Shown: positions 11,730 to 56,406, counted from the first letter of the stretch. The stretch is 64,000 bases of DNA from Dehalococcoidia bacterium (GCA_965220255.1 OZ244816.1:369124-433123); one strand, 5' to 3'. The notes: generated by a model not told the origin, from the letters alone. Numbers and translations are program-made.

Positions 11730-11773
11730 GGAAGAAAAAGTCGCGGTTCGCGCCTACGTGTGGGCAACACCCT

Positions 11774-12874: not shown

Positions 12875-13056
12875 CTGTTTCCTCCCACACGAGTCTCTCG
12901 TATAGGGTAATGGCTTGCCGCTGCGCGGTCAAAGACGCGGTAGCAGAGCCAGGCGGTGTCTGGTACATTTTGCCGAAGGGTGGGTGTCCTGCGTCCATGC
13001 ACAGCCGGGCGGCCCCCCACGAGTCAATGGAAATCGAATTGGTGTGAGGAGCTAGC

Positions 13057-13392: not shown

Positions 13393-13398
13393 AGTGCC

Positions 13399-14988: not shown

Positions 14989-15020
14989 GAGGCAGCGAGC
15001 GTGCGCGATACGTCGGCGAG

Positions 15021-15701: not shown

Positions 15702-15786
15702 GTGCTGGAAATGTCAAAGCGAGGACTGGGCGGGTTTGAAACCCCCTCATAGTATCGCTACCCTTCAATACTAAGGTCTTGAACCA

Positions 15787-20019: not shown

Positions 20020-20126
20020 GCTTGCCTCCTATAACCCCCTTCCTCGGTCTTTCCCTTGAGGGGGAAGGATGGGGGCATTCCTCGTCTTACTGCCAACAAG
20101 GAAGGTTGGGGAATTCGTGGATAGGG

Positions 20127-30328: not shown

Positions 30329-30404
30329 TGGAGCCCTCAAGCAGACTCGAACTGCTGACCTCGTTCTTACCAAGAACGCGCTCTGCCTCCTGAGCTATGA
30401 GGGC
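30329..30404 (-). tRNA. tRNA-Thr (anticodon GGT), CCA encoded
   Basis: The reverse complement folds by hand as a cloverleaf: acceptor GCCCTCA/TGAGGGC, D stem GCTC/GAGC, anticodon stem CGTTC/GAACG with loop TTGGTAA, T arm AGCAG-TTCGAGT-CTGCT. Confidence 0.85.
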
Positions 30405-30440
30405 ACGCACCTTCCTTTCGGAACGGGCCTGACGGCGCTT

Positions 30441-30527
30441 TGGTGCAGGGAGTAGGATTCGAACCTACGTAGCCCTTAGGGCGCCAGATTTACAGTCTGG
30501 TGGATTTAACCACTCTCCCATCCCTGC
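30441..30527 (-). tRNA. tRNA-Tyr (anticodon GTA), class II with long variable arm, CCA encoded
   Basis: Acceptor GCAGGGA/TCCCTGC, anticodon stem CCAGA/TCTGG with loop CTGTAAA, variable stem GCCC/GGGC, T arm GTAGG-TTCGAAT-CCTAC, discriminator A. Confidence 0.85.
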
Positions 30528-30618
30528 ACGTAGCCGACAGCCGATTATTTTAGCACAAGCGGCATTTCCAATCCAAGACGCGCCTACTCGAAGCGTCGTC
30601 CCGGTTGGGTTAGGTGAA

Positions 30619-30692
30619 AGCCCCAGGGGGGACTCGAACCCTCCAACCTGCCGATTACAAATCGGCTGCGCTGCCGATTGCGCCACTGGGGC
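30619..30692 (-). tRNA. tRNA-Thr (anticodon TGT), CCA not encoded
   Basis: Acceptor GCCCCAG/CTGGGGC, D stem GCGC/GCGC, anticodon stem GCCGA/TCGGC with loop TTTGTAA, T loop TTCGAGT. My hand fold has one A.C mismatch in the T stem and a 6-nt variable loop. Confidence 0.8.
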
Positions 30693-30710
30693 CCGGCGGA
30701 TTGTTTCAAC

Positions 30711-35948: not shown

Positions 35949-36770
35949 TTGCGCAACTCCGATGTGACAGTCAGGTCGTCGGAAGCTCGGTTTCTATCCG
36001 GTGTGGACGACATCGTCCAGTCATTCGTCAGGACTCCGCTCTGGATTACCCTCGGTTGGTACGACTTCGAGCTGCAGTACCGTCGAGCATTCATTGGCCC
36101 TCTGTGGGAAGTCATTATTGTAGGAGTGTGGGTAGCCGGGCTGGGCCTTCTCTTTGGTCGCCTGCTTGGTCACGATCAGGGAGACTACCTGGTATACATG
36201 GCGGCCGGCGTGGTGCTTTGGCAGTACGTGTCAAATACGCTCACGACGGGGGCGAACGTATTCGTCGTGAATGCGCGGCAGATCGTTTCAATCAACAACC
36301 CACTCTATACCTACGTACTACGGAACGTCGTCGAGCACATGGTCAAGTTGGGTATCCATTCGCTGGTGTTCATTGCCGTCATGATTATCACGCAAACTCC
36401 TGTTAAGCCGATGATGCTTCTCGCGCTCCCGGGACTGGTGACCCTGGCTGTCACCACCTTATGGGCTGTACCGCTATTGGGATTCATCGGGACGAGGTTC
36501 CGTGACTTTACACATCTTCTCCGAGCGGTGATGAGGTTTCTCTTCTTTGCCACGCCGGTATTCTGGTACGCAGACGGCCTGAACGACCGGGCCTATCTGG
36601 CGAACTACAACCCATTCACGCACTTCCTCGAGATCGTGAGGGCGCCGCTGACCGGTGAGACGGCCTCCTTGACCTCGTGGGGAGTCGTCTTGGCAATTAA
36701 CGTCGTCGGCATCGCGATCATGTTCGCGACGTACAGTCGGCTGCGCAGATCACTCACGCTCTGGATCTGA
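35949..36770 (+). CDS. wzm: ABC-2-type polysaccharide/teichoic-acid export permease (Wzm/TagG/KpsM-like); start uncertain (TTG 35949 or GTG 35964)
   Basis: About 270 aa, 6 TM helices. ...LGWYDFELQYRRAFIGPLWEVI... has the N-terminal motif typical of ABC-2 exporters. It sits 3 nt upstream of the cognate ATPase gene. Confidence 0.75.
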   Translation: MRNSDVTVRSSEARFLSGVDDIVQSFVRTPLWITLGWYDFELQYRRAFIGPLWEVIIVGVWVAGLGLLFGRLLGHDQGDYLVYMAAGVVLWQYVSNTLTTGANVFVVNARQIVSINNPLYTYVLRNVVEHMVKLGIHSLVFIAVMIITQTPVKPMMLLALPGLVTLAVTTLWAVPLLGFIGTRFRDFTHLLRAVMRFLFFATPVFWYADGLNDRAYLANYNPFTHFLEIVRAPLTGETASLTSWGVVLAINVVGIAIMFATYSRLRRSLTLWI

Positions 36771-36773
36771 TTC

Positions 36774-38312
36774 ATGGATAGCGACTACGCCATCAGCTTG
36801 CAGGACGTGACGCTGGAGATTCCGGCGCGGCGCCGAATTCCGCATCGCGCAAGAAGGGGGACGAGCGCGTCCCAAGCTGCGCCTACGCAGATCGGTGGGA
36901 GGCTGAGCTTCGGTCGTGGATCCTCAACCACCGTCACGATCTTGGACGGCGTGAACATCGCCATTTCAAAGGGACAGCGCGTCGGTCTCATTGGGGCTAA
37001 CGGGGCCGGCAAGAGCACTCTCTTGAGGGTGATAGCAGGAATCTACCACCCTACACGCGGGGTTGCGGAGACCCGGGGAACGATATCCACCCTGTTCCCG
37101 GAACTCCTCGGCGTGCGACCTGACGCCACCGGGCTGGAGAACATTGTTCTCACCGGAGTCCTTCTTGGTCTGACGAAGAAGGAGATCAGTAGAAGGTTAC
37201 CGGAGATCATCGAGTTCACGGAGCTCGGCGATTACATCTACATGCCTATTCGGACGTACTCGACGGGAATGCGTACCCGGCTCGTGCTGTCGATAGCGAC
37301 GTGCATTCGCCCTGACATTCTCCTCGTTGACGAGGTGATCGGCGTCGGGGACAAGAGCTTTCGGCTCAAGGCCAAGGACCGTTTCAATGAGATGATGACC
37401 TCCGCGAATACTCTGATAGTCGTCTCACAGTCTCCCGAGATCATCCGCGAGTTCTGCACCGAGGCGATCTGGCTGGAGCGCGGCCAGGTGAGGAACATGG
37501 GGCAAGTGGACGACGTGCTGCGTGCGTATGCTGCCCATGCGGCAGGCACAAACGAGGGAATGGCCTCTGACTCCAAGACGCTGCTGGAGGCACGCGACAA
37601 CCTTGCCGGGGATGGGAACCTGAACTGGTCGCCGGACATACCAATCACAAGCTGGGATGGCGTCACGGTTGGGGGCAACCCAAGTCGGGTGACCCGGCTG
37701 ATTCTCCGCGAAAGCCAACTCAGGGGTTCAGTTCCGAAGGCGTTGGGGGATCTTGCGGAGCTTACTCACCTGGACCTTCGAAGCAATCAATTGAGCGGAG
37801 AGATTCCGTCGGGATTGGGACGACTTTCAAAATTGGTGATACTCGACCTCCATAGCAACAACTTGGAAGGTCCAATCCCTCCGGAATTGGGTAAACTCAC
37901 CGACCTGAAGGTCCTCAATCTACACAGCAACAGGTTGAGTGGCCCCATCACCAAGGAACTCAGTCAGATCACATCACTAGAAGGGCTATACCTTCACAAC
38001 AATCGATTGAGCGGTACAATACCGGTTGAGTTGGGCAATCTCAGGATTCTGGATAACCTGTGGCTCTCCACCAACCGGCTGAGCGGGGAAGTGCCCGCCG
38101 AGCTTGGCAATTTGACCGACCTTACCAAGCTCAGCCTCCACGGCAACCGGTTGAGTGGGACCATACCATCCGAGTTGGGAAACCTCGGCAAAAGCCTGCA
38201 GTTCTACCGCCTCAGCGGAAACAATTTCGTTGGGTGCATTCCGGCTGGGCTGGCAAACGTAGCTGACACGGACCAACACCAGCTCGGTCTGCAGGTATGC
38301 TCAGACAATTGA
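36774..38312 (+). CDS. wzt: Polysaccharide-export ABC ATPase (Wzt/TagH-like NBD) fused to a C-terminal plant-type leucine-rich-repeat domain
   Basis: 512 aa. Walker A GANGAGKST, YSTGMRTRL signature, Walker B ILLVDEVIGVGD. From aa 283 (nt 37620): LNWSPDIPITSWDGVTVGG..RVTRLIL cap, then eight 24-aa repeats L..L..L.L..N.LSG.IP..LG. Confidence 0.8.
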   Translation: MDSDYAISLQDVTLEIPARRRIPHRARRGTSASQAAPTQIGGRLSFGRGSSTTVTILDGVNIAISKGQRVGLIGANGAGKSTLLRVIAGIYHPTRGVAETRGTISTLFPELLGVRPDATGLENIVLTGVLLGLTKKEISRRLPEIIEFTELGDYIYMPIRTYSTGMRTRLVLSIATCIRPDILLVDEVIGVGDKSFRLKAKDRFNEMMTSANTLIVVSQSPEIIREFCTEAIWLERGQVRNMGQVDDVLRAYAAHAAGTNEGMASDSKTLLEARDNLAGDGNLNWSPDIPITSWDGVTVGGNPSRVTRLILRESQLRGSVPKALGDLAELTHLDLRSNQLSGEIPSGLGRLSKLVILDLHSNNLEGPIPPELGKLTDLKVLNLHSNRLSGPITKELSQITSLEGLYLHNNRLSGTIPVELGNLRILDNLWLSTNRLSGEVPAELGNLTDLTKLSLHGNRLSGTIPSELGNLGKSLQFYRLSGNNFVGCIPAGLANVADTDQHQLGLQVCSDN

Positions 38313-38334: not shown

Positions 38335-41133
38335 ATGGTAGAAACACATAAGCCCGAATCAATGGAACACACGCATGTGAGAGATCGTGTCTCCCAGGTG
38401 TACCTTGGCATCATGGACTGGGGTCCCATGGGCGACGTTCTCCGTCGTCGAGTCGACTGGATGGCTGAGCAGGCCCAGGGGCCCAGAGTGTTGGACGTGG
38501 GCTGCAGTGAGGGGATCCTGGAGGTGCTGCTCGCACGCCGTGGAATGGACGTTACGGGTGTGGAGGTGAACCCCGACGCCCTTGAATTCGCTTACGAACT
38601 GCTTGCCGAAGAGCCGGACGAGGTACGCAGCCGCGCGAAGCTGATTCAAGGGGACTTCATCTCCGAGCGGCCGGTAACCGGTCATTTCGACACCGTTGTC
38701 CTGGGCGAGATTCTCGAACATCTCCACGATCCCGGTCCGCTGCTGGAGCGGAGCCTGGAGCACTTGCGCCCGGGTGGGCTGCTCGTCATTACGACCCCCT
38801 TTGGACTGCATCCACACGAAGACCATCATCAGACCTTCTACCTTACGGACATGATCGACGCGCTCAAACCGAGGCTTGCACTTGAGCACATGAGCGTGGA
38901 GGACAGCTATATACGCTTCGTTGGCAGCATGTCGGAGAACTGCGAGGCTTCCTGGCAGTGGCTCGATGCCGAGGCGGTCTTATCCATGACACAGACGGCG
39001 CTCGTCGCCTCAGACGCCAAGCTGGACGAAATGCTGACGAAGCGAGAGGACCGGATCCAGGAACTCACACGCCAGAGGAACTATCTGAGAGATGAGAACC
39101 AGGACCTCAAGCGACAGGTCAGGTTCGACAAGATGGCATTGGGCCGGTTTAAAAGAAACCTCGATGCCAGGACGGGAGAAGTACGGGTACTCAGGCACCG
39201 ACTGCAGTCAGCATATTCGAGTACATCCTTCCTAACCGGAGCAGCATTGGTGCGCGCCGTCAAGCAGCCGCACACTCTGTGGAAGCTTCCGTTACAGATG
39301 TTGCGCCTTTATGGAGCCGCTTCCAAACCTTCGGCAGAACTCACCCCGGATGAAGACCTGGCCAAGCGATACAAGTACATTCCCAAGAGTCTGAATCTAG
39401 ACATCACGGAATTCCTCACCTACCCGCCCATGGACTTGCCTGAGGCAAAGTCGGACGGTCCGCCTGTTGCAGCCATTCTCGACACATTCACTGAGCACTC
39501 TCTGCGATATGAGGCAAATCTCCTGCTGTTGTCCCTCGAGAATTGGCGCGATCAATTGGAGAAGACCCCGCCCGCCTTCCTCTTTGTCGAGTCAGCCTTC
39601 AGCGGCAACAACCGTGAGTGGCGACACAAGATAGTCGGCTACGAGAACCTTGAGGACAATCCGCTCCGAGAGTTGCTGCAATACTGCCGTTCGAAGGGGA
39701 TCCCAACGGTATTCTGGAACAAGGAAGACCCTCCACACTTTGATGACTTTATCGGAGCCGCCAGAGAGTTCGACTACGTATTCACGTCCGATGAGCACTG
39801 TGTCCCGATATATCGCGAGACCTTGGGTCACGACAGGGTCTACGTAATGCCTTTCGCCGCACAGCCGCGGCTCCACAATCCGTCTCAGGAGGAAGGTTGG
39901 CCCAACTATCCCGTGTGCTTTCCGGGAAGCTGGCAGCAGCACAGATATCCTGAACGCGCGGAGGCGCTTCAAAACATGCTGGACCCTGCCCTACCGCTCG
40001 GCCTTCATATATTTGATCGTAATCTCACGCGAAGGGACTTGGGTCCGTACTATCGCTTCCCGGATCAATACAAGGAAGCGATCAAGGGTTACCTCACGTA
40101 CCAAGAAATGCTGACGGTGTACCGGTGTTACGACGTGCTCCTGAACGTGAACACCGTGAGCGACTCTCCAACGATGTTCTCACGCCGAGTCTTCGAGAGT
40201 CTCGCATGTGGGACTCCCGTGATCTCCTCGGAGTCGGTGGGCATGAGCCGGATGCTCGGAGAGCACGTCAGAGTAGCGCACAGCAAGGAAGATACGATAG
40301 ACCACCTGTTGGAACTGATGGGGGATGAAGAAGCACGTATTCGAGAAGGGCACAAAGCTTACCGCTTCGTGCATGAGAACCACACCTACCGGCACCGGAT
40401 GAATGAGGTATTCCGGAACATAGGAATGGAATCGCTCGTTACCGAACAGCCGTCGGTGAGCGTCCTTATGCCCACCATGCGTCCCGAAAACGTGCTTCGA
40501 TGCATCGAGAATTTCACAAAGCAGGAATATGGGAATAAGGAACTGATCCTCATCCTGAACAATGCGGAGTTCGATCTCGATGACGTCCGAAAGCACACCG
40601 CCGGTATTCCCAACATCCAGGTGCTTCATGTCGAGGGGCGCACGACCTTGGGAGACTGTCTAAACAGGGGAGTGGCGGCGGCATCCGGCAGCTACGTTGC
40701 CAAGATGGACGATGACGATCATTACGGAGAACGGTTCTTGTCTGACAGTATTCTCGCAGCCTCGTTTTCGGATGCCGAGGTCGTTGGGAAGGCATCGTTC
40801 TTCATGTATTTCGAGGACGCGGACACAACGGCCCTTGCTGAAGTTGCGCGTGAGCACACATTCACCCATTTCGTAACTGGCGGGACGATGTTCATACGGT
40901 CCGACGTTGCCGGAGAAATACCATTCGATCCGATTTCGCTGAGGGAAGATACGAACTTCTTGCACGCCGCGACACAGGCCGGATGCCGTATCTACGCCGC
41001 CGACCGGTTCAACTTCATTCGGGTGCGGACAGACGATGTGTCCAATCACGCGGATCCGACGCCAGACATGGAGTTCCTCAGAAGGTGCAGGGCGAAGACG
41101 CCCGGCCTTGACCTGGACCGCGTGATGATATGA
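38335..41133 (+). CDS. Multidomain glycan-assembly protein: class I SAM methyltransferase, coiled coil, CgeB-like (GT1-fold) glycosyltransferase, GT2 glycosyltransferase
   Basis: 932 aa. Methyltransferase motif I VLDVGCSEGILEVLLARRG (aa about 45-165). Heptad-rich charged segment aa about 222-295 (KLDEMLTKREDRIQELTRQRNYLRDENQDLKRQV...). CgeB-like block aa about 375-695 (IPTVFWNKEDPPHFD..., LNVN...SPTMFSRRVFESLACGTPVIS). GT2 block aa about 705-900 (SVLMPTMRPENV..., AKMDDDDHY). Confidence 0.75.
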   Translation: MVETHKPESMEHTHVRDRVSQVYLGIMDWGPMGDVLRRRVDWMAEQAQGPRVLDVGCSEGILEVLLARRGMDVTGVEVNPDALEFAYELLAEEPDEVRSRAKLIQGDFISERPVTGHFDTVVLGEILEHLHDPGPLLERSLEHLRPGGLLVITTPFGLHPHEDHHQTFYLTDMIDALKPRLALEHMSVEDSYIRFVGSMSENCEASWQWLDAEAVLSMTQTALVASDAKLDEMLTKREDRIQELTRQRNYLRDENQDLKRQVRFDKMALGRFKRNLDARTGEVRVLRHRLQSAYSSTSFLTGAALVRAVKQPHTLWKLPLQMLRLYGAASKPSAELTPDEDLAKRYKYIPKSLNLDITEFLTYPPMDLPEAKSDGPPVAAILDTFTEHSLRYEANLLLLSLENWRDQLEKTPPAFLFVESAFSGNNREWRHKIVGYENLEDNPLRELLQYCRSKGIPTVFWNKEDPPHFDDFIGAAREFDYVFTSDEHCVPIYRETLGHDRVYVMPFAAQPRLHNPSQEEGWPNYPVCFPGSWQQHRYPERAEALQNMLDPALPLGLHIFDRNLTRRDLGPYYRFPDQYKEAIKGYLTYQEMLTVYRCYDVLLNVNTVSDSPTMFSRRVFESLACGTPVISSESVGMSRMLGEHVRVAHSKEDTIDHLLELMGDEEARIREGHKAYRFVHENHTYRHRMNEVFRNIGMESLVTEQPSVSVLMPTMRPENVLRCIENFTKQEYGNKELILILNNAEFDLDDVRKHTAGIPNIQVLHVEGRTTLGDCLNRGVAAASGSYVAKMDDDDHYGERFLSDSILAASFSDAEVVGKASFFMYFEDADTTALAEVAREHTFTHFVTGGTMFIRSDVAGEIPFDPISLREDTNFLHAATQAGCRIYAADRFNFIRVRTDDVSNHADPTPDMEFLRRCRAKTPGLDLDRVMI

Positions 41134-42854
41134 CGAAGGCGTTGCTCGCCACGCTCATCGTCCTGGCGCTGGGATGTGGAGGGGCTGATCCGGCGTCAAT
41201 TCGAAAAACCGAGCCGGCGAATAACGACAAGGTAACGAACCAAACACCAACCGCCAATTCACAAGACCCGATTCGCCCTCCGGCAAGCTGGCAGGTTCAG
41301 GCCGATGGCGGGCCGAGAGTGACCGAACTGACCCTGGGCCGCAAGCCGGACGGTCCGTGGAAGTTTCAACCACGTTACGACGACCCGGAATGGGATGCCT
41401 CTCTCCCAACCGATTGGTCCGCCGATCCCTTCGAAGACCTCAATTGGCAGCATCATCTCCATTCCTGGCGCTCAATGGAGTTTTGGCTGAATGAATTTCT
41501 CCGAACCAACGATGCTGATCTTCTCCGGCATCCTATAGATATAGTCCTTGACTGGCATCGATTCCACATTGAGGAGGGCAGGGTCAGCCACCTTCAGTGG
41601 TACGATGACGCGACCGGAGTACGCGCATCTCGGCTGGCCTTTCTCCTCGAGTTCATTCTGGAGGACGAAATCGAGGTCAGCGATGACAACCTCGCTCGGC
41701 TCATGACCTTGGCTGACCTGCATGTCGAGAAGCTCATGGACCCGGAGTTTCTCAGTTCCAACAATCACGGCCTCTTCCAAATGGTGGGGCTTGATGCGCT
41801 ATGCTCCGTCACGGGTTGGAGAGAGGCTTGTCGTGGAGCCGGAGAATACGCAAGGGATTCGTTCGTTAGATTGATAGGGACCTGGTATACCGAGGAGGGA
41901 GTAAACGTAGAGAGTTCGCCAACGTACCACTACTGGGTCACAGAGAAGATTCGCGAGTTGGGGGCCTCTGAGCGCTTCCGGCACCCTGATGTGCAGGAGA
42001 TACTTGAGGAGGCCGACGAAGTCTCCCCCTGGCTGACATATCCGGACGGGAGGTGGGTCCGCGTGGGGGACAGCCATGGCGAAGGCCCAAAGTTGACCGG
42101 CTCCGTCCCGTCTACGTGTCTTCCGGAAGGCGGAGGCTGTTGGGCGGTTCGAGACCTGAGCAAATCGGGCTATGCGCTTGTTCGATCATTGCCGGAGGTC
42201 GAGGCAAGCCGGTCGAGCATGTTGTTCGTCGGCGGGACTACGGCTCCAACGGGACACAAGCACGCCGATGACCTCGGATTCGTACTCATAGAGGGTGGTC
42301 AAGATATCTTCATCGACAGTGGAAGGTACGGTTACAACTATGATGCGGCCCGTAATTACGTGTTGAGTGCGCGGGCGCACAACATACCGAGCCTCGTGGA
42401 TAGGCGAATCGATCCCTACGTTATCGATCCCGAGAAGTCGCATCTGGGACCGCTCAGGGTGGAGGAAGGTCAATTCACCATCAGTGGCGTCGTCGACAGA
42501 CCGTGGCTGCTCGTCCACGAGCGAAAGCTGTCGTACATTCCAGGAGTGATGCTCAGGATAGAGGACAAGCTGGACAACCGAACCGAGTCCCGGTGGCAGT
42601 CCAACCTGCATCTTGCGCCTAGACTCATTCCCGAAATTAGCGAGGCGGGTTTCGTTGTCACTGCCGGTGAATTGACCGTGCAGGCGGAGTTTAGCGGTGA
42701 GGGCTGCAGTATATCCGCAGCCCGGGGAGAGACCGACCCATACCAGGGTTGGGTGTCGGTCGGATACTTGGAGCTTGCCCCGGCTTCGGTTGTCGTCGCG
42801 ACCTGTCCCGCCGACTTGGTAGAGAGCTCATGGCACATCACGTTCGAGCGCTGA
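41130..42854 (+). CDS. Secreted (possible lipoprotein) heparinase II/III-like / alginate-lyase-like protein
   Basis: 574 aa. Signal LLATLIVLALGCGG. C-terminal GHKHADDLGFVLIEGGQDIFIDSGRYGYNYD...ARAHN is typical of Hepar_II_III. The ATG overlaps the upstream stop (ATGA). Confidence 0.65.
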   Translation: MTKALLATLIVLALGCGGADPASIRKTEPANNDKVTNQTPTANSQDPIRPPASWQVQADGGPRVTELTLGRKPDGPWKFQPRYDDPEWDASLPTDWSADPFEDLNWQHHLHSWRSMEFWLNEFLRTNDADLLRHPIDIVLDWHRFHIEEGRVSHLQWYDDATGVRASRLAFLLEFILEDEIEVSDDNLARLMTLADLHVEKLMDPEFLSSNNHGLFQMVGLDALCSVTGWREACRGAGEYARDSFVRLIGTWYTEEGVNVESSPTYHYWVTEKIRELGASERFRHPDVQEILEEADEVSPWLTYPDGRWVRVGDSHGEGPKLTGSVPSTCLPEGGGCWAVRDLSKSGYALVRSLPEVEASRSSMLFVGGTTAPTGHKHADDLGFVLIEGGQDIFIDSGRYGYNYDAARNYVLSARAHNIPSLVDRRIDPYVIDPEKSHLGPLRVEEGQFTISGVVDRPWLLVHERKLSYIPGVMLRIEDKLDNRTESRWQSNLHLAPRLIPEISEAGFVVTAGELTVQAEFSGEGCSISAARGETDPYQGWVSVGYLELAPASVVVATCPADLVESSWHITFER

Positions 42855-42925: not shown

Positions 42926-44041
42926 ATGCGCATATTGTCAGTCGTTGGGACACGTCCCGAAGCTGTGAAGATGGCAATGGTGGCGCGCACCCTCGCAGCA
43001 GCCGAGGGAATCGAGCATGAGCTGTGTGTCACAGCGCAGCATCGGGAAATGCTGGACTCGGTGCTGCGGCTGTTCGAGCTTGAACCTGACTATGACCTGA
43101 ATGTGATGACCCCTGGGCAGGACCTCACGGACGTCACAGGTGCGGTCTTGACCGGAATGCGAGACGTGCTCTCGGAGGTCAAGCCCGATCGAGTTCTCGT
43201 TCAGGGCGACACGACAACGGTCTTGGCAACCGCATTGGCCGCGTTCTACGCTAAGATTCCCGTCGGGCACGTGGAGGCAGGCCTGAGGACAGGCGACATG
43301 TCGGCCCCCTGGCCTGAGGAGATGAACCGTAGGCTGGCCGACGCACTCAGCGACCGCCACTACGCACCCACTGAGACGGCTCGCAAGAGACTACTGGAGG
43401 AAGGCCTGCCGGATTCCGGGATCGTGGTGACCGGCAATACGGTGATAGACGCGCTCCTGCACATCGTTGACCATCTGAAAAGCGACCCGGAGCTTGAACG
43501 TGAGGCGGAGGAACGCCTGCCCACACGGGACCGCGCGCATAAGCTCATTCTTGTTACCGGCCACAGACGTGAGAGCTTCGGCGTGGGCTTCGAGCAGATC
43601 TGCAGGGCAATCGCCCAGATTAGCAGACGAGACGACGTGGAGATAGTGTATCCGGTGCATCTGAATCCGAGAGTGCGTGAACCTGTGTTCCGCCATCTGG
43701 CCGATCTTCCCAATGTTCATCTGATAGAACCGCTAGACTATTTGGCATTCGTGCATCTGATGAATGAGGCGCACCTGATCGTGACGGACTCCGGAGGAAT
43801 TCAAGAGGAGGCCCCCTCGCTGGGGAAACCCGTGCTTGTGATGCGCGATACGACAGAGCGGCCGGAGGCAATTGCCGCAGGGACGGTGAAGTTGGTGGGT
43901 ACGGACGCTCAACGCATCACCTCGGAAGTTTCGCGGCTGTTGGATGAACCTGGCGTTTACACATCCATGGCGCGAATACACCATCCCTACGGCGACGGGC
44001 GAGCCAGTGAACGGATACTCAAGGACTTGACGGGTGGTTAA
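42926..44041 (+). CDS. wecB: UDP-N-acetylglucosamine 2-epimerase (non-hydrolysing)
   Basis: 371 aa. [17 protein letters not shown]..., [44 protein letters not shown]. Confidence 0.9.
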
Positions 44042-45290
44042 GGGCTTGGAGCGAGTTTGTGTGGTGGGTCTCGGCTATGTGGGACTGCCTACCGCGGCGG
44101 TCTTGGCAAGTCGTGGAGTCGACGTGATCGGAGTCGATATCGACGGCGACCGCGTCGATGAGATCAATTCAGGACGGTCTCCATTTGAAGAGCCGGGTCT
44201 AGACTCCCTTGTCGATGGTTCAGTGGCAAACGGGACTCTGACAGCGCGCACCAATCCTGTCCCGGCCGATGCGTTTGTCGTGGCAGTTCCGACCCCTGTC
44301 AGGGAGGACCGGAGCCCTGATGTCAGCTATGTGCGCGCGGCGGTCGAAAGTGTGGCACCCACTCTGCGGAAGGGCAACCTCGTGGTCGTGGAGTCGACGT
44401 GTCCCGTCGGGACGACGGAGAAGGTCTGCGAGTGGCTGGCGACGGCGCGACCTGACCTGACGTTCCCTCACACCGTAGGCGAGACGAGCGACATCCGTGT
44501 GGCATACTGCGCCGAGCGCATTCTGCCGGGGAACGCCTTGAAAGAGCTGATCGAGAACGATCGTGTCATCGGCGGAGTGAGTTCGTCATGCGCGGAGGCG
44601 GCGAAGCGGCTGTACGAAACGTTCGTCGAAGGGGTCTGCAGGGTTACGGACGTGCGCACGGCCGAACTGTCGAAGCTTACCGAGAACGCCTTCCGAGACG
44701 TCAATATTGCGTTCGCCAACGAGATGTCGATGGTCTGCGAGGCCCTGGGCATTGATCCATGGGAGATGATAGCGCTGGCAAACAGGCATCCCAGGGTTGA
44801 TATCCTCAACCCAGGACCCGGCGTCGGGGGACACTGCATACCGGTTGACCCCTGGTTCATCGCCAGCGCTGCGCCCGACCTCACGCCTATGATCCAAACC
44901 GCGCGACGGGTAAACGATGAAATGCCGAAGGTAATCGCGGACAGGGTGATTGCCGAGTGTGAAGGTCTTGGCAGTCCCATTGTCGTGTGCCTGGGACTGG
45001 CCTATAAGGCGGATGCGTCAGACATGCGGGAGAGTCCGTCCATTGAAGTCGTCAAACAATTGCAGGGGAATCTCAGGGGAAGACTACTGGTCGTCGAGCC
45101 GTTTGTTTCCGAGCTGCCTCAGGAGCTGCGAGGCGACGGGAAGACCGTGCTGGTCGGACTTGACGAAGGGATTGCGGAAGCGGACGTAGTGGTGCTGCTC
45201 ACGAATCACAGCGCCTTTTCGGACATAGACAGAGAGCTGCTTTCGTCGAAGGTGGTGGACTCGCGTGGACTTTGGAAGCGCATCGGCTGA
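44034..45290 (+). CDS. wecC: UDP-N-acetyl-D-mannosamine dehydrogenase (UDP-ManNAcA-forming)
   Basis: 418 aa, GTG start overlapping wecB by 8 nt. [12 protein letters not shown] Rossmann, catalytic-Cys context [28 protein letters not shown]. Confidence 0.85.
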
Positions 45291-45347: not shown

Positions 45348-46592
45348 ATGAAAATTCTCGTACTCACCCAGAACTTTCCGCCTGAGGTTGGAGCAACTGC
45401 CGCCCGCCTGCACAGAATGACGAAGAGTCTGGCCGAGCGGGGGCACCAAGTCACCGTCATCACGGCAATGCCGAACTACCCAACCGGACGGGTCTTCGAC
45501 GGATATCGCGGCAAGGTCAGGTCTGTTGAGGAGACCGATGGCGTCAGAGTAGTCCGTACGTGGTCGTTTCCGTCCAAGTCATCGAACTCACTCCTGAGAT
45601 TGATAGGCTACGCATCGTTCGCGCTGTCAAGTCTCCTGCTGGGAATGAGGGGCCTTGGACGTCAGGATATCGTCCTCTTCGACACTCCTCCCCTACCACT
45701 TGTTCCCACCGGACTTGTATTGGGACGTGTTACCGGCGCCCGGGTGGTCATGAACGTCTCCGATATCTGGCCTGAGATGGCAGTGCAGCTGGGATATCAA
45801 GTAGGAAGGCTCTCGATGTGGGCGCTGAAACGGCTGGAGCGTCTCGGCTACGAGAAGTCGGATGTCGTTACAACGACTACAAGTGCGGCCAAAGAGAAGA
45901 TCAGCCGGCGATTTCCCCATGTTCGCACTGCGGTTATCAGCAACGGCACAGACCTTAGGATGTTCAACCCTTCGCTCAGGAACCAAGAAGTCCGTGATTC
46001 GCTGGACGCTCAGGCGGAAGACTTTCTGGTCGGCTACATCGGCCTGCACGGACTGTTTCAGGGCCTGGAGGTCGTCGTGGAGGCGGCAGACAGGCTACGC
46101 GGGCACAAGGCGATCAAGTTCGTCATGATCGGAGACGGCCCCCGTAAAGATGCGCTCAGAGACCTCGCAGAGCGCAAGAACCTCGACAATCTTCAATTCC
46201 TTGACCTCGTGGACAGGGAGAGAATTCCTTCGATACTCGCCTCGTGTGATGCGGCACTTGTCCCGCTTGCGGCGGAGTTTCCCAGTACGATTCCCTCGAA
46301 GGTCTATGAGATTATGGCATCGGGAGTGCCGGTGGTTATCAGCACGGGTTGCGAGGGCGCCGGAATAGTGGAAGAAGGCAAGGCGGGGCTGACATTTCGT
46401 CCGGGTAATGCCATAGAACTTGCGGAGGCCCTAACTTATCTGGAGGCAAACAAGGAAGAGACTGCTCTCATGAGAAAGAATTGTCGAAAACTCGCCTCCC
46501 ATTTCGACTATGACCGAATTGCCGAGCAGACCGAGTCTTTCCTGCTGGCGATCGCGAACGGGACAGCCAGTCCCTTGAATAAGGGAAAGTAA
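45348..46592 (+). CDS. GT4-family glycosyltransferase (WcaI/WbuB-like)
   Basis: 414 aa. MKILVLTQNFPPEVGATAARL...; C-terminal E-x7-E-like context PSKVYEIMASGVPVV. Confidence 0.8.
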   Translation: MKILVLTQNFPPEVGATAARLHRMTKSLAERGHQVTVITAMPNYPTGRVFDGYRGKVRSVEETDGVRVVRTWSFPSKSSNSLLRLIGYASFALSSLLLGMRGLGRQDIVLFDTPPLPLVPTGLVLGRVTGARVVMNVSDIWPEMAVQLGYQVGRLSMWALKRLERLGYEKSDVVTTTTSAAKEKISRRFPHVRTAVISNGTDLRMFNPSLRNQEVRDSLDAQAEDFLVGYIGLHGLFQGLEVVVEAADRLRGHKAIKFVMIGDGPRKDALRDLAERKNLDNLQFLDLVDRERIPSILASCDAALVPLAAEFPSTIPSKVYEIMASGVPVVISTGCEGAGIVEEGKAGLTFRPGNAIELAEALTYLEANKEETALMRKNCRKLASHFDYDRIAEQTESFLLAIANGTASPLNKGK

Positions 46593-46731
46593 TCATCGGA
46601 GAAGCTGTGGGGGATTTCGGCCAAATTTCGGAAAATGGATAGACTTTGACACAACAAAAGGCATGTGCGATAGTATGGCCACTTGAGTGTGCGAAGGTAC
46701 GAAGCCAAGACACGTTAGGAGGCAGTTCAAA

Positions 46732-47295
46732 ATGGAATCTGTATTTCTGATTCTCATTGGGGCGGCGTTGTTTTCTCAGTCCTGGCACGTCATGGGGCTG
46801 TACCCGGACGGCAGGACTGTGGGGATCTTCGTTGGCGGACTTGGAGTCCTGTCGCTTGCGGCTGCCATCGTGCTTGATCCGATGCTGCTGACCGGTTCGG
46901 GCGACAAGGCGATTTCAGCGGCCAACCATATGGCCGAGGTCACGGCTACGAAGGTCCTTATCGCCGTGTGGGGGCTCTACTGCATAGGAGTTGCCGCGCA
47001 GTCGCTCTGGGATCTTGAGGAGCGGGCGGTGGGCTTTTTCAGCTTGATCGTAACGGTCGTGACTGCTGTCGTCTTCCTCTACTACGCCGGAGTCCTGGAA
47101 CCTCGGTACGGGGAGAACATTTGGCTCGGTCTCTCCGCTGCCTCGCTGCTTCTGACGATCATTTCCGCAGTGGTGTTCTTTGCGCTGGGGTTCACGTTCA
47201 ACGTCATGCGGGCCGTCGCGGGATGGACCCTGCTGCTATGCGGGGGAACCGTCGGGATTATTGGCTTGGCTGTCGCCGTTCGCGCGATTGCTTAG
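46732..47295 (+). CDS. AmiS/UreI-family-like channel protein (6 TM)
   Basis: 187 aa from ATG 46732, preceded by AGGAGG. The N-terminal pattern FLILIGAALFSQSWHVMGLYPDGRTVGIFVGGLGVL resembles the UreI/AmiS LLYVG..L..NG...L......A..NFFVGGL. This is recalled similarity only. Confidence 0.5.
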   Translation: MESVFLILIGAALFSQSWHVMGLYPDGRTVGIFVGGLGVLSLAAAIVLDPMLLTGSGDKAISAANHMAEVTATKVLIAVWGLYCIGVAAQSLWDLEERAVGFFSLIVTVVTAVVFLYYAGVLEPRYGENIWLGLSAASLLLTIISAVVFFALGFTFNVMRAVAGWTLLLCGGTVGIIGLAVAVRAIA

Positions 47296-47358: not shown

Positions 47359-49365
47359 ATGATCGCTATGCCCGACAGCATCATGTCGATTGAGGAAATC
47401 CTGGCCGCGAGCGAGCGGGAGGCGTCTCTCTACGACTGGAAGGGAACCTTCGCCGACTACCTTGCCATGGTCGTGGAGAACCCTTCCTTAGTGAAGCTCT
47501 CTCATGCTCGCGTCCGCGACGCCATCCTCGCACAGAAGGTGGATACGTTACCTACGGGGGAGCCGGTCTATAGGCTGTTTGAACAGGACATCTTCGGCCT
47601 CGATGATGTGCTCAAACAAATTGTCGAGTACTTCGAGGCGGCGGCAAAGGGCGAGGAGACGAGGAAGCGTATTCTCCTGCTTCTCGGCCCCCCGGCTAGC
47701 GGCAAGTCGACTATCGTTGCCCTCATCAAGAAGGCGTTGGAGGACTACACCCGCACCGACGAAGGGGCCGTCTACGCCATCGCGGGCTGTCCCATGCAGG
47801 AGGAGCCGCTCCACCTGATACCGCACTCGCTGCGGCCCGTTCTAGAGGAGCAGTATGGTATCGAGATCGAGGGGGAACTGAACCCCAGAAACCGCTATTT
47901 GCTCAGGACGAAGCACAACGGGAACATCGCCGATGTGCCCGTGGAACGCGTCGTGTTTTCCGAGCATGAGGCGGTGGGAATCGGGTACTACGTGGCAACG
48001 AACCCGAACGCCGACTCTTCTCTCCTCGTCGGAAGCATCGACACCGATCGCCTTGACGGAGACCGCACCGAAGTAGCGGGAAAAGCGTTCCGCATGGACG
48101 GCGAGTTCAACGTGGCGAACCGCGGCATGATCGAGATGGTAGAGATATTCAAGGCCGACAAGCACCTGCTCACGACCCTGTTGGGACTGGCCCAAGAACA
48201 GGTCATAAAGATGGAGAAGTTCGGCTCGATCTACTCCGATCAGGCCATCATCGGCCACTCCAACGAGGGCGACTTCAACACGTTCGCCCTCGACGAGCAC
48301 TCGGAGGCGCTCAAGGACCGCATCATCGCCATTCACGTACCCTACAACTTGCGCGTCAGCGAGGAAGTGAAGATATATGGCAAGATCACCACGAGGAGCG
48401 AAGAGGCGGATGTCTGCATTGCGCCTCTCACATTGCAAGTCGCCAGCACGTTCGCCGTCCTCTCTCGGCTCGACCAGCCCACCCGCCAGGGTATGACGCT
48501 GCTGGACAAGATGCGTCTCTACGATGGGCGGATGGTGGGGTCGTACTCGCGCCAGGACGCGGTCGAGATGAGACGGCATCATGCCGACGAAGGGATGAAC
48601 GGAATATCGCCTCGATACGTTATGAACCGCATCGCCGCCGTCGCCAGCACTCCCGGCGTCAAGTGTGTGACTCCGCTGGCGGTACTCGAGAGCCTGTGGC
48701 AAGGCATGAGCGAGAACGTCAGTCTTGATCAGGCAGGCAGGACGGCCTTCATAGGTCTGGTAAGCGATACCGTCAGCGAGTACAACGAATTGGCCGTCAC
48801 CGACGTCCAGCGAGCGTTCGACGAGTCGTTCGACGAGACTGCGGCGATCCTGCTGGCCGGCTACCTCAAAAGCGCGCGGGCCTACTGCTCCGGTAAAGAA
48901 CCGGATGACGACGATGTGGGGTTCGACGAACGCGACATGCAGGAAATCGAGCGTCCCATCAACGTTCGAGAGAAAGATAAGAAGGCCTTCCGCAAGGAGA
49001 TTGACCGTCTGGCATTCTTGTTCGAAAAGCGTGGCCGCAGGTTCGACTACGCGACCGAGCCGAGGCTCAAGGCGGCAATCGAATCTCGCCTCTTCCCGTC
49101 GACCCGCGAACTGCAGCGAGGCCTCACCAGGCCTCGATTCGCTCGTCAACGCGCCGAGTGGTCGCAGCGGCGTATCTCCATCGTCAAGCGCCTGATCGAT
49201 AAATATGGCTACTGTGCCGTCTGCGCCGAAGACCTCCTACAATACGTGACCGAGTTGCTTCAGAAGAAGACAATGTTCAGGACACCCAAGAACGAGGGGG
49301 TCGAGTGGCAGTGGGACCTCTACCCGACGAGCGCGACCCTGGTCCCGCCGTCCGAGGAGAGCTAA
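47359..49365 (+). CDS. prkA: PrkA-family serine protein kinase / AAA+ ATPase (YeaG-like)
   Basis: 668 aa. WKGTFADYLAMVVENP (compare B. subtilis PrkA WEGTFADYLEIIKENP). Walker A LLLGPPASGKST. FGLDDVLKQIVEYF. Confidence 0.85.
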   Translation: MIAMPDSIMSIEEILAASEREASLYDWKGTFADYLAMVVENPSLVKLSHARVRDAILAQKVDTLPTGEPVYRLFEQDIFGLDDVLKQIVEYFEAAAKGEETRKRILLLLGPPASGKSTIVALIKKALEDYTRTDEGAVYAIAGCPMQEEPLHLIPHSLRPVLEEQYGIEIEGELNPRNRYLLRTKHNGNIADVPVERVVFSEHEAVGIGYYVATNPNADSSLLVGSIDTDRLDGDRTEVAGKAFRMDGEFNVANRGMIEMVEIFKADKHLLTTLLGLAQEQVIKMEKFGSIYSDQAIIGHSNEGDFNTFALDEHSEALKDRIIAIHVPYNLRVSEEVKIYGKITTRSEEADVCIAPLTLQVASTFAVLSRLDQPTRQGMTLLDKMRLYDGRMVGSYSRQDAVEMRRHHADEGMNGISPRYVMNRIAAVASTPGVKCVTPLAVLESLWQGMSENVSLDQAGRTAFIGLVSDTVSEYNELAVTDVQRAFDESFDETAAILLAGYLKSARAYCSGKEPDDDDVGFDERDMQEIERPINVREKDKKAFRKEIDRLAFLFEKRGRRFDYATEPRLKAAIESRLFPSTRELQRGLTRPRFARQRAEWSQRRISIVKRLIDKYGYCAVCAEDLLQYVTELLQKKTMFRTPKNEGVEWQWDLYPTSATLVPPSEES

Positions 49366-53555: not shown

Positions 53556-53887
53556 CACAGGGGTGGAGTGTTCGCCTCAACAACTCTGAACACTTACGAC
53601 GTGGATGTTAAGGCATGATGATCCCTGCAGGCTTGAGACGATATGGGATTCCTAGCGGGAATGGAAAGTGGGATCCGGCCTCCGCCGGAATGCCGTGGGG
53701 CTCTTCGGCGAAATGACCGAGGCAGTAGGATCAGGGAGGCTTTCGCGGTCGTGACAAGTGCTGAGACAGAGGGGGGCGTATACTGGAACGTTGATTGACT
53801 TATCTTCCTATAAATGCTAAAAGTGAGGGAACGCAATTCGAACCGGCAACAAAGTGCGGAAATGAGATTCTCAATTCTGAGAGGAGA

Positions 53888-56338
53888 ATGACTATGCGAC
53901 GAACACTCTTGAATATGGGAGGGTTTGCGGCCCTGGTGGTTATCGTCACCATGGTTGGGGCCCTCGCGTGCGAGTCGTCGGAAGAGCCGGCACAGCCCAT
54001 ACCGGCAGCAAGGGCTGCTCCCGCGGCTCCTGCTGCAGATCCTGCCCCTGCCCAGGAATACGAAACTATGGCGCCGCAGGCGCAGCAGCAGCCGGCTCCT
54101 GCCGCACCTGCCAGGTCGGCAGACCAGCCTGACGCGCCGGTGAGTGCGGGAGTCGGTGCTGTTGTCGCTACGGCTCCGGGGCGTGAGGGCGAGGACCCAG
54201 CCGACGCGATGGCTAGCTTCGAGTACATGGCGCCGAAGCTGGAGCCGGGCGGCTATCCGTCTCATCAGTGGGACGGTCCGATTCCCACGAAATTCAGTGA
54301 GTCCCCGCAGTCGGCGGCGTTGGTCAGGTCGGGACAAATTCTTCCTGTGGAAGAGCGTCTGCCCGTGCACGAGGACATCTGGGTCATCGCGCCGTATGAC
54401 GAGATTGGCGTATACGGCGGAAACATGAGGATAACGACCCACCACGTCAAGACGCTGGACCACCTGGCGGTTACCAGCCTGGTTAATGGCGACCCGACGG
54501 GCACCAGCGAGCCTCGGCTCATCAAGGGCTGGGAAGTGAGCGATGACGGCAGGAAGTACACCTTCACGAACCGTCGGGGCGCTCGATGGTCGGACGGCTA
54601 CCCGATGACCATCGAGGACGTCAGGTTTGCAATGGAAGACCTGATGTACAACACTGAGCTCAACCCGAACCTGCCGGCCGAGTTGAAGTCGCAGATTACC
54701 GGAAACCCGGCGAGCTTCGCGGTCGTTGACGACGTGACCTGGACCATTGAGTTCGACGACCCGTACTACGACCTCGCAAGCTCCAGGCACATGTGGGGAT
54801 CGTCCAAGACACGAGGGTGCCCGCGCTGCTACTACGCTCCCTCGCACGTCTACAAGCGCTACCACCAAAAGTACAACCCTGACGAGATCGACGCCCTGAT
54901 GGCGCAGTACGAGCAGGAAAGCATCCGAGGCCTCCAGAACCGGATCGACAACATCCGCAACGGTCCCGGAAGTGACTGGCGGCAGACGGGACCGATACCG
55001 ACGGAGTTCGATCCGAACTTCATCTACAAGGGCGACATCTACACGCCGGCCATGTCCGAGCTGATCCAGACCCGGTGCTGTGAGGGTGGACGCGCAGCGG
55101 TGCGGAACCACTACTTCATGGGTGTAGACCCTGAGGGCAACCAGATGCCGTACATCGACGAGCAGATTCTCATCCTCACCGAGGACAGGACTGCCTCCGT
55201 CTTCCGCGCCATGAACGGCGAGAACGACTACTACGGCGGTTCGATGATCCTCAGCGAGCTGCCCCTCTACATGGCGAACATGGAGAAGGGCGACTACAGC
55301 GTCTACATCTTCCGCTCGCCGGCAGGAAACGACTCGGCGACAGCGGTACAGAACGAGTTCGTGCAGGACCCCGAAATGGGACAGCTCCTCCGCACGAAGG
55401 ACTTCCGCAAGGCGCTCTCGATAGCGACCGACCGGAACGAGATGAACGAAGTTGTGGCGAGCGGAATCGGCACTCCGCAGCAGTGGATCCCTCATGCGAG
55501 CACGCCGTACTTCCCGGGCAAGGAGTACGCCGACCTTGACGCCAGCATCGACCTCGACGGCGCCAAGGCAATCATGGCGAACCTGGGTTACTCGGACGCG
55601 AACGGCGACGGATACCTCGATCGCAAGGACGGGAGCGGACCGCTGTCGCTGCACTACATAGCCAGTTCCACCTACTTCCCTCACATCGAGATCCTGCAGG
55701 ACCACTGGGGCCAGTTGGGAATCAAGGTTGACATCGAGGAAGGCGGTTCCGGGGGAGTCCGGCAAGAAAACCCAACGCTCCCGTTCGAGCACCACATCTC
55801 GCTCTACTCGATGAACCAGTGGACCGTCCAATGGACCCGCGCCTTCGCAGGCACGAGCGGCAGTCCTCTCGGCGCCGCGATGGGCAACTACTGGGCATCG
55901 TTCGGTGAGCAGGGAATGGCCCCCACGGGCGGCGATCCGCTGTACACGGACGCCTACGGCAACCAAGCCCCGGTGGGCAACTACCCTGCTGACATCACCG
56001 GCAACATCATGAGGAAGCAGGACATCTGGCGGACGGGCATCCAGACCGGCCCGGTGCTCCATCCTGAGCGTGTCGAGATGGGCAAGGAGTTCTGGCGGAT
56101 CAGCGCCGAGGAGAAGTACAACATCGGCTACCTGGCCTTCATGGGCATCGTTCGCGGCATGACGATGAAGCGCAACAACCTCCGCAACGTGCCGAAGAAC
56201 CACGTGGCCCTCGAGGCGAAAGGTATCCTGGGCGCGTACTACTTCGAGGACGGTCTCGACAACATCAGCAATCCTGGCAACAGGTCGCAGAAGTACAAGA
56301 GCGTACACTTCCTCGATCCTGAGTACTGGACGCAATAG
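53888..56338 (+). CDS. ABC-transporter substrate-binding protein, family 5 (oligopeptide/nickel-type), lipoprotein-like, with Pro/Ala-rich tether
   Basis: ATG 53888 is preceded by GAGAGGAG. Signal FAALVVIVTMVGALAC, then about 60 aa of P/A/Q-rich linker, then SBP_bac_5-like blocks (KGWEVSDDGRKYTFTNRRGARWSDGYPMTIEDVRFA). Confidence 0.8.
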   Translation: MTMRRTLLNMGGFAALVVIVTMVGALACESSEEPAQPIPAARAAPAAPAADPAPAQEYETMAPQAQQQPAPAAPARSADQPDAPVSAGVGAVVATAPGREGEDPADAMASFEYMAPKLEPGGYPSHQWDGPIPTKFSESPQSAALVRSGQILPVEERLPVHEDIWVIAPYDEIGVYGGNMRITTHHVKTLDHLAVTSLVNGDPTGTSEPRLIKGWEVSDDGRKYTFTNRRGARWSDGYPMTIEDVRFAMEDLMYNTELNPNLPAELKSQITGNPASFAVVDDVTWTIEFDDPYYDLASSRHMWGSSKTRGCPRCYYAPSHVYKRYHQKYNPDEIDALMAQYEQESIRGLQNRIDNIRNGPGSDWRQTGPIPTEFDPNFIYKGDIYTPAMSELIQTRCCEGGRAAVRNHYFMGVDPEGNQMPYIDEQILILTEDRTASVFRAMNGENDYYGGSMILSELPLYMANMEKGDYSVYIFRSPAGNDSATAVQNEFVQDPEMGQLLRTKDFRKALSIATDRNEMNEVVASGIGTPQQWIPHASTPYFPGKEYADLDASIDLDGAKAIMANLGYSDANGDGYLDRKDGSGPLSLHYIASSTYFPHIEILQDHWGQLGIKVDIEEGGSGGVRQENPTLPFEHHISLYSMNQWTVQWTRAFAGTSGSPLGAAMGNYWASFGEQGMAPTGGDPLYTDAYGNQAPVGNYPADITGNIMRKQDIWRTGIQTGPVLHPERVEMGKEFWRISAEEKYNIGYLAFMGIVRGMTMKRNNLRNVPKNHVALEAKGILGAYYFEDGLDNISNPGNRSQKYKSVHFLDPEYWTQ

Positions 56339-56406
56339 ACCGACAGATTGAAACACACCATCCGTTCGCCCTCCGACAAGCGCGGGGTGAACGGATGGAA
56401 AAAGCC

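Follow-up and report, generated by a model that had tools for sequence, protein, structure and literature searches.

What does a bacterial protein do that carries a methyltransferase at one end, two glycosyltransferases at the other and a long helix in between? The question is raised by a 932-residue fusion protein encoded on the + strand at 38335..41133 of a 64,000-nucleotide stretch of a Dehalococcoidia genome (GCA_965220255.1 OZ244816.1:369124-433123); this whole stretch is called the window below. The protein is best read as a coiled-coil-spaced polymerase-terminator for a surface glycan that contains N-acetylmannosaminuronic acid (ManNAcA) and is exported by the adjacent ATP-binding cassette (ABC) transporter, Wzm/Wzt. 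This reading is given a probability of about 60%.

The open reading frame (ORF) is a single, ATG-initiated frame. Its start is uncertain by ~10-15 residues: there is an alternative ATG at M10, the N-terminal ~15 residues differ among homologues, and no clear Shine-Dalgarno sequence was seen upstream. The first-pass annotation of this DNA had described a four-module fusion of methyltransferase, charged heptad-like segment, CgeB-like glycosyltransferase and GT2 glycosyltransferase. Pfam, AlphaFold2 (AF2) and the ORF call confirm this layout, and the nucleotide ranges first given are off by no more than a few codons in any of the four modules. A whole-protein AF2 model computed from an 82-sequence alignment has a mean predicted local distance difference test score (pLDDT) of 76. 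Homology searches detected 1091 homologues, the best 120 of which are full-length, have the same architecture and are 62-92% identical to the window protein; a chance origin of the architecture is therefore excluded. A pseudogene or a mis-called fusion is likewise ruled out by the intact frame and by the conservation of full-length homologues at this level of identity.

In the proposed mechanism, the glycan would be assembled on a lipid carrier, on the membrane's cytoplasmic side, before the neighbouring Wzm/Wzt exports it, with the CgeB-like GT-B module and the GT2 (GT-A) module alternating to extend the chain. A coil of ~11 heptads, presumably parallel, would hold the methyltransferase some 10-12 nm from the glycosyltransferases, a distance estimated at ~0.15 nm per residue. 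Once the chain is long enough, the methyltransferase would reach its non-reducing end and methylation would stop extension, by analogy with WbdD, WbbB, O7 ORF6 and WsaE, the systems compared at the end. The modal chain length would be set by the length of the coil, one heptad (~1 nm) corresponding to about one disaccharide repeat. Coil length itself evolves fast: 21-bp units are gained and lost, while the catalytic modules and the heptad phase are kept.

The segment proposed to be the spacer or ruler (38968..39225, +, residues ~212-297) was delimited from its heptad score, the AF2 model and the indels of homologues. In a heptad scan, which used a home-made 28-residue window score compared with shuffled sequence, the score exceeds the 99.9th percentile of shuffles solely at window centres from residue 233 to 285. 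A single heptad register runs from ~227 to ~297 (~70 residues), and 15 of the 22 a and d positions of the window protein are hydrophobic in that register. Across 121 sequences, positions a and d are hydrophobic in 69% and 66%, compared with 12-23% at b, e, f and g, and not one proline occurs in the coil. AF2 predicts one unbroken helix at residues 212-294 (83 residues) between the methyltransferase and the glycosyltransferase modules. The coiled-coil propensity that had been claimed for residues 222-295 is thus borne out by the heptad score, the a/d pattern and the predicted helix.

The strongest new evidence comes from comparing the lengths of this segment among homologues. Segment lengths were taken between conserved anchor columns of a MAFFT alignment and are independent of the alignment within the segment. 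By this measure the methyltransferase segment is 176 residues long in 116 of 121 sequences, the GT-B segment 331 residues in 112 and the GT-A segment 226 residues in 101. The coil segment of the best 120 homologues has 68, 75, 79, 86, 93, 100, 107, 114, 121, 128 or 135 residues, and the longest one found, at locus L023, has 156. Coil length, which the first-pass annotation had suggested surveying across homologues, therefore varies widely and almost solely in heptad units. On a minimum spanning tree derived from the non-coil columns of 116 full-length proteins, coil length differs on 60 of the 115 edges. Fifty-four of these changes are multiples of 7 residues (7 on 32 edges, 14 on 19, 21 on two and 28 on one), an excess with a binomial P of 5e-39 against 1/7. 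The remaining six are 3 or 4 mod 7, the classic stutter and stammer classes, and none falls in any other class. Many of the changes separate proteins that are just 4-8% divergent outside the coil. The adjoining linker provides an internal control: at residues 300-370 it has indels of 1, 2, 3, 4 and 5 residues, not heptad-sized ones. This makes the segment a genuine coiled coil of heptads, with a highly evolvable length and a conserved phase.

Does the length of this coil matter? The alternative that survives best is that the coil is genuine and its length is without functional consequence, 21-bp repeats expanding and contracting and only in-phase products surviving, since out-of-phase ones would break the coil. 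Long alleles do contain such repeats: at L023 a 21-bp tandem repeat (6 copies, 93% match) lies in the coil at 10826-10950, and at L020 there is a 42-bp repeat (2.4 copies, 94% match). Purifying selection on heptad phase alone could also yield the mod-7 pattern. However, short alleles have no DNA repeat, the window's own ORF among them (Tandem Repeats Finder detected none), so that drift along a repeat tract does not by itself account for length. The tandem paralogues also speak against neutral change. Many relatives carry two tandem copies of the fusion gene that are ~60% identical, and clustering on the glycosyltransferase region defines two types: type A is the upstream copy, to which the window protein belongs, with a coil segment of 68-107 residues, and type B is the downstream copy, with 100-156 residues. 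These distinct ranges recur across many genomes, and in 12 of 12 loci with two full copies the longer coil is that of the downstream copy. Neutral repeat instability is accordingly judged unlikely, although it deserves the most serious hearing among the competing accounts. Tandem paralogues are found at L002, L003, L006, L007, L009-L012, L014, L016, L018 and L019 (about 10001-15700 in each); in the window genome only type A occurs. L023 has a further 21-bp tandem repeat (11239-11313, 3.6 copies, 88% match) in the post-coil linker, separate from the coil repeat.

The N-terminal domain (38377..38955, +, residues ~15-207) is a class I S-adenosylmethionine (SAM)-dependent methyltransferase. Pfam families Methyltransf_23, 12, 25 and 11 all match at residues 37-159 above their curated cut-offs (E 2e-17 to 2e-12), and AF2 predicts a Rossmann-type fold with a pLDDT of 80-90. 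Motif I, VLDVGCSEG at residues 52-60, aligns with those of MitM (VLDLGCGVG) and PDB 3cc8 (VLDIGCSSG); G56, C57 and G60 are invariant or nearly so across 82 homologues. For the acidic residue expected where beta-2 ends, the window protein has E at position 77 and the homologue consensus has D. The first-pass annotation had made its proposal depend on an intact SAM pocket, and motif I is indeed intact and aligned to solved methyltransferases, including one with GCSSG. In the model, the methyltransferase fold ends at ~207 and the coil starts at ~212, a gap of ~5 residues that leaves no space for a kinase domain.

The Wzt subunit encoded next to the fusion gene (36774..38312, +) is unusual. Its residues 1 to ~260 form the ATPase (Pfam ABC_tran; NCBIfam Wzt/RfbE 1e-71, below the equivalog cut-off), and residues ~261-512 (nt ~37554-38309) form a cytoplasmic, plant-type leucine-rich repeat (LRR) domain of 24-residue units with an LRRNT-like cap (Pfam LRR_1, LRR_8 and LRR_4). 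A search with the LRR half alone returned generic LRR proteins only; the search with full-length Wzt revealed the distribution of the fusion. Wzt-LRR fusions form ~70 clusters, all at least 62% identical to the window Wzt and confined to one Dehalococcoidia clade. Their lengths are 488, 512, 536, 560 and 584 residues, in steps of 24 residues or one LRR unit. No published description of such a fusion was found in a literature search on Wzt and leucine-rich repeats, and a Wzt_C-type carbohydrate-binding module is absent. The LRR domain might bind the finished glycan or a protein partner, the latter being the more common case among LRRs. The first-pass annotation had taken the neighbouring Wzt with its unusual recognition domain as fitting its model; Wzt does adjoin the fusion gene, but the domain is a clade-confined LRR and many loci have a Wzt without any C-terminal domain, so that the fit is weak and does not stand in the form claimed. 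Type A coil segments are 86-107 residues long in loci with the LRR and 68-75 in loci without it, a difference confounded by phylogeny.

A bolder reading combines these features. The glycan rulers of these Chloroflexota may be naturally diversified, with about one repeat unit per heptad, quick retuning in 21-bp steps, two tandem rulers in many genomes, one short and one long, for two length classes or polymers, and, in one clade, a Wzt LRR domain that replaces the cap-binding module and links the exporter either with the completed chain or with the coiled-coil enzyme. Taken as a whole this is tentative, and considerably less probable than the polymerase-terminator function itself.

A number of findings weigh against a methyl-capping ruler. 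Heptad-quantised variation fits a spacer whose length and phase matter, but what it proves is a phase-constrained coiled coil, not a ruler. The pLDDT of the coil is only ~55-73 in the monomer model, as is expected for a monomer. For a long-coil homologue (P0073), AF2 predicts one helix at 201-285 and another at 306-332, and the repeat insert falls in a low-confidence gap between them; the heptad scan of P0073 covers the entire longer segment. The nearest relatives of the methyltransferase are the small-molecule O- and N-methyltransferases UbiG, MitM and MtfA, and the WbdD methyltransferase appears only as a generic class I match (E 5e-5 to 9e-5 over 83 profile positions, rank ~49-57), which leaves sugar specificity and a capping role of the domain putative. 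In established terminator systems Wzt bears a cap-binding C-terminal module. In many of the more distant loci with the fusion protein, Wzt is the nucleotide-binding domain alone, without a C-terminal domain, and in the others it ends in the LRR domain; cap recognition by Wzt is therefore not general in this family. The window ORFs scanned did not include a gene for an initiating phosphoglycosyl transferase, a ligase or an LCP protein. Literature searches on CgeB with coiled coil and ABC transporter, or on DUF3880, found no characterised member of the family and no biochemical data for it.

Some of these points favour a second alternative, in which the glycosyltransferases polymerize, the methyltransferase decorates internal residues or another substrate, the coil only oligomerizes or scaffolds the protein, and coupling to export determines chain length, as it does in systems with a Wzt that has no binding module. 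A Wzt reduced to the nucleotide-binding domain goes with terminator-free systems in the established paradigm, and the methyltransferase lacks specific similarity to known capping enzymes. Some upstream paralogues also lack the methyltransferase (L020, 7749-9977; L021, 7746-9977; L008, 6978-9047): their match to the window protein begins at residues 244-257, and they keep part of the coil and both glycosyltransferase modules beside a full-length downstream copy. That at L020 and L021 one paralogue retains part of the coil without the methyltransferase counts for this alternative. On the other hand, if the methyltransferase acts on every repeat, it is hard to see why a long, rigid spacer should keep it so far from the glycosyltransferases, and a coil that is highly variable yet strictly phase-preserving exceeds the needs of a dimerization element. 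Moreover, the characterised proteins of this layout are all terminators (PMC11231755). Internal decoration is thus the more doubtful of the two alternatives considered so far.

The polymerase-terminator reading further requires that the two C-terminal modules make a polymer. The first of them (39463..40419, +, residues 377-695) was delimited from Pfam, AF2 and Foldseek matches and its fixed length in homologues. Pfam Glyco_trans_1_2 matches at residues 570-692 (E 2.4e-20, 73.4 bits against a cut-off of 25) and DUF3880 at 461-517 below threshold (18.2 bits against 25.2). DUF3880 and Glyco_trans_1_2 together are the CgeB-type pair. AF2 predicts two Rossmann-like halves, at 377-510 and 525-695, and Foldseek relates the module to MshA (GT4) and to the GT-B half of EXT1/EXT2. 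The module is a CgeB-like GT-B glycosyltransferase, its DUF3880 half being sub-threshold; the analysis turned up no CgeB-like GT-B whose acceptor or donor is known. The second module (40450..41034, +, residues 706-~900) is a GT2 glycosyltransferase of the GT-A type. Pfam Glycos_transf_2 matches at residues 709-817 (E 2.9e-10, 40.8 bits against a cut-off of 23.3), sequence matches in the PDB are 5hea, 3bcv and 9jma, and Foldseek matches are SpsA, TarP, WrtF and 6p61. Within its MDDDD motif (residues 791-795), D793 is invariant and D792, D794 and D795 are nearly so in the 82 homologues. The domain families that had been named at the outset thus stand, Methyltransf_11/23, Glyco_trans_1_2 and Glycos_transf_2 above the Pfam cut-offs and DUF3880 below. 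With the whole model as query, the best Foldseek match is the human heparan sulfate co-polymerase EXT1/EXT2 (E 8e-11, 620 aligned columns, TM-score 0.2-0.3), and further matches include 5hea, WrtF, 6p61, SpsA, TarP and RmlT (GT2), MshA, the K4 chondroitin polymerase and small-molecule methyltransferases. That the protein is instead a non-polymerizing, multi-step transferase, each glycosyltransferase adding one sugar to a defined oligosaccharide (a linkage unit, glycolipid or protein glycan), the methyltransferase finishing it and the coil organizing the complex, is improbable: most modules of the GT2 and GT-B (GT4-like) kinds add a single sugar and the best PDB sequence and fold matches (5hea, 9jma, SpsA, TarP, MshA) are single-addition transferases, but the cluster has a polymer-export-type Wzm/Wzt and just one other glycosyltransferase (a GT4 enzyme), the GT-B and GT-A tandem is conserved as a cassette behind variable-length coils in thousands of proteins, and the same domain order occurs in the co-polymerases EXT1/2, with the model also matching the K4 enzyme.

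Between the coil and the GT-B module lie two smaller elements. Directly after the coil, a helical pair (39223..39315, +, residues 297-327, SSTSFLxGxALVRAxKQP..LWKLP..LLRLY) stands out by its conservation and in the AF2 model, which has helices at 297-310 and 312-327. S298, G302, V306, A308 and P319 are invariant in the 82 sequences. A hydrophobic-moment scan of these helices gave no decisive signal for membrane binding; the pair is a candidate membrane-proximal or docking element. It is followed by a variable, low-confidence linker (39316..39462, +, residues 328-376), identified by homologue indels and pLDDT, which is below 50 at residues 329-340.

The surrounding genes indicate which glycan may be made. 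Directly upstream of the fusion gene, and kept there in all related loci, are Wzm, an ABC-2 permease (35949..36770, +; NCBIfam galactan export permease Wzm/RfbD 7e-60, short of the equivalog cut-off), and Wzt; both are assigned to glycan ABC exporters at the family level only, from their profile matches. The next gene, whose start overlaps the stop of the fusion gene, encodes a heparinase II/III-like protein with the lipoprotein signal LALGC (41130..42854, +; Pfam Hepar_II_III_C 2.9e-18). It is followed by WecB, a UDP-N-acetylglucosamine (UDP-GlcNAc) 2-epimerase (42926..44041, +; NCBIfam TIGR00236 3.8e-150, above cut-off), and by WecC, a UDP-N-acetylmannosamine (UDP-ManNAc) dehydrogenase supplying UDP-ManNAcA (44034..45290, +; NCBIfam NF008286 1e-167, 558 bits against 459, above the equivalog cut-off). 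The last gene encodes a WcaI-like GT4 transferase (45348..46592, +; Pfam Glycos_transf_1 and Glyco_trans_4_4; NCBIfam WcaI family 3e-60), which is a candidate primer or adaptor transferase and, with the two fused modules, makes up the glycosyltransferases of the cluster. These genes, from Wzm to GT4, are on the same strand, overlap or are closely spaced, and form an apparent operon. No terminator-like site was found on the + strand inside the cluster, in a promoter and terminator scan whose yield was at or below chance expectation.

WecB is linked to the fusion gene in every complete locus. This includes a locus (L024, 5782-15435) in the Gammaproteobacteria metagenome-assembled genome (MAG) RHO1_bin_53, where a 39%-identical homologue with a 40-residue coil segment occurs with Wzm, Wzt, WecB and likewise WecC; the cassette may have been transferred between phyla. 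From the linkage of WecB and WecC and the lipoprotein signal of the heparinase-like protein we infer an exported polymer with a uronic acid in it, and the glycan probably contains ManNAcA. The heparinase-like lipoprotein could be a lyase or C5-epimerase acting on the exported polymer. Not all related loci have its gene; at L003 it is split (15672-16175 and 19685-20860) by an insertion of ~3.5 kb. The close relatives are all Dehalococcoidia (Chloroflexota) MAGs, their genomes measuring 3-4.4 Mb, and the gene order in 20 or more of their loci is DnaJ, MetE-like, Wzm, Wzt, the fusion gene (one or two copies), heparinase-like, WecB, WecC, GT4, a 202-residue membrane protein and PrkA. In the window, the genes for the 202-residue membrane protein (46687-47295, weak AmiS/UreI match) and PrkA (47359-49365) follow the glycan cluster and are syntenic in the closer relatives.

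The family extends well beyond these genomes. A HMMER scan of 1.84 billion representative proteins yielded 22307 matches at E<=1e-3; at E<=1e-30 there are 2509, which are clusters at 50% identity. In 108 of the best 149 representatives the N-terminal methyltransferase has a homologue, and 122 show heptad-positive windows ahead of the GT-B module, whose start ranges from ~residue 290 to ~1075. Named members come from Actinopolymorphaceae and Alkalihalobacterium and are annotated only generically. If the polymerase-terminator reading is correct, the coiled-coil ruler strategy extends from the O antigens of enterobacteria to Chloroflexota, with related architectures in Actinomycetota and Bacillota. 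The natural allele series (68, 75, 86, 93 ... 156 residues) on otherwise near-identical enzymes would then offer a ready-made test of the ruler model that needs no engineered insertions, and the Wzt-LRR fusion poses the question, open to testing, of how an exporter without a carbohydrate-binding module tells that a chain is finished. Sponge metagenome bins are the source of several relatives, and the glycan may therefore play a part in how symbiont and host interact; SB0661_bin_13 is a related Dehalococcoidia bin whose sample code, SB0661, occurs among sponge-symbiont bins in the literature.

Other features of the window lie apart from the glycan cluster. Two adjoining genes on the - strand (15787-17919 and 17926-20019) encode ~700-residue proteins with NHL or teneurin-like beta-propeller repeats. 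A tRNA cluster, Thr(GGT)-Tyr(GTA)-Thr(TGT), lies at 30329-30693 (-), two of the three being confirmed by Rfam at the gathering threshold. At 53594-56356 (-) a 920-residue ORF that has no Pfam match is overlapped by an 847-residue ORF on the + strand; either strand could be coding.

How does the fusion protein compare with known systems? The coil is an established ruler in Escherichia coli O9a WbdD and Klebsiella O12 WbbB, and the strategy has been termed widespread (PMC11231755). For Klebsiella O12 WbbB and O7 ORF6, experiments have established a distal terminator on a coiled coil, together with polymerase glycosyltransferases, in a single protein (PMC11231755). Of the features of this class, the window locus has the linkage to wzm/wzt and a coil between the proposed terminating enzyme and the glycosyltransferases, and its Wzt lacks a Wzt_C-type cap-binding module.

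Klebsiella pneumoniae O7 ORF6 consists of an N-terminal methyltransferase-kinase, a carbohydrate-binding module, a coiled coil and, at the C terminus, two GT2 modules (Kelly et al., 2024, PMC11231755). Like ORF6, the window protein is a single polypeptide encoded beside wzm/wzt, with the methyltransferase N-terminal, the coiled coil central and two glycosyltransferases C-terminal; in ORF6 the methyltransferase is the terminator and the coil the molecular ruler. Unlike the window protein, ORF6 is ~1414 residues long, has an extra 223-residue kinase domain and an immunoglobulin-like carbohydrate-binding module before the coil, and adds a methyl-phosphate. Its glycosyltransferases are both GT2 rhamnosyltransferases and act with a separate ribofuranosyltransferase, whereas the window protein combines a CgeB-like GT-B with a GT2 module. 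Membership of the ORF6 family, compared by description, was rejected because there is no space for a kinase and the first glycosyltransferase is GT-B rather than GT2.

WbbB of Klebsiella O12 and Raoultella also has an N-terminal terminator and two C-terminal glycosyltransferase modules, and unites polymerization, termination and the coil ruler in one protein (PMC11231755). In contrast to the methyltransferase found here, its terminator is a GT99 beta-Kdo transferase, and its polymerase modules are GT102 and GT103. The window protein was not assigned to this family, given its methyltransferase; a WbbB chain was not among the sequence and fold matches listed.

In WbdD (E. coli O9a/O8, Klebsiella O3/O5) the methyltransferase, alone or with a kinase, lies at the coil's distal end, as in the window protein, and the coil sets chain length (PMC11231755). 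The O8/O5 type adds a plain methyl cap, and the loci encode GT4 adaptor transferases and Wzm/Wzt (PMC11231755); a GT4 transferase and Wzm/Wzt are common to these loci and to the window. However, WbdD has no glycosyltransferase modules and recruits a separate polymerase, WbdA, by means of a C-terminal membrane helix, and the Wzt of WbdD systems has a cap-binding beta-sandwich module of which there is none here. A place in the WbdD family was rejected on three grounds: the match is limited to the methyltransferase core, there is no kinase, and the glycosyltransferases are fused rather than recruited.

Outside the O antigens, WsaE, which acts on the S-layer glycan of the monoderm Geobacillus stearothermophilus, combines a methyltransferase with two polymerizing rhamnosyltransferases and is encoded beside wzm/wzt (PMC2943079). 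Host type, the N-terminal methyltransferase fused to two glycosyltransferase domains, the wzm/wzt genes directly upstream and the overlap of genes are all shared with the window locus, and the O-methyltransferase of WsaE forms the chain-ending cap (PMC2943079). Both glycosyltransferases of WsaE are rhamnosyltransferases, and its product is a poly-rhamnan, not a uronic-acid glycan. No coiled-coil ruler has been described for WsaE, and its methylation in vitro is independent of chain length. EXT1/EXT2 and the E. coli K4 chondroitin polymerase, like the window protein, have two glycosyltransferase modules in one chain, and they build alternating polymers of uronic acid and hexosamine. EXT1/EXT2 shares the order of GT-B followed by GT-A, which at ~11% identity and the low TM-score given above is a resemblance of fold order only; the EXT and K4 polymerases have no methyltransferase and no ruler, and work in a different cellular setting.

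The first-pass annotation had proposed the design logic of WbdD and WbbB built from different parts. Its interpretation is plausible and came through each of its own computational checks that was run, with polymerization, capping and a ruler function as putative roles. The module families do differ, but the construction is not new: the design logic is already known, with O7 ORF6 and WsaE as its precedents. What is new are the module families used, the large uncharacterised family to which the protein belongs, the heptad-quantised allele series, the short and long tandem paralogues, and the clade-specific fusion of Wzt to a leucine-rich repeat domain.

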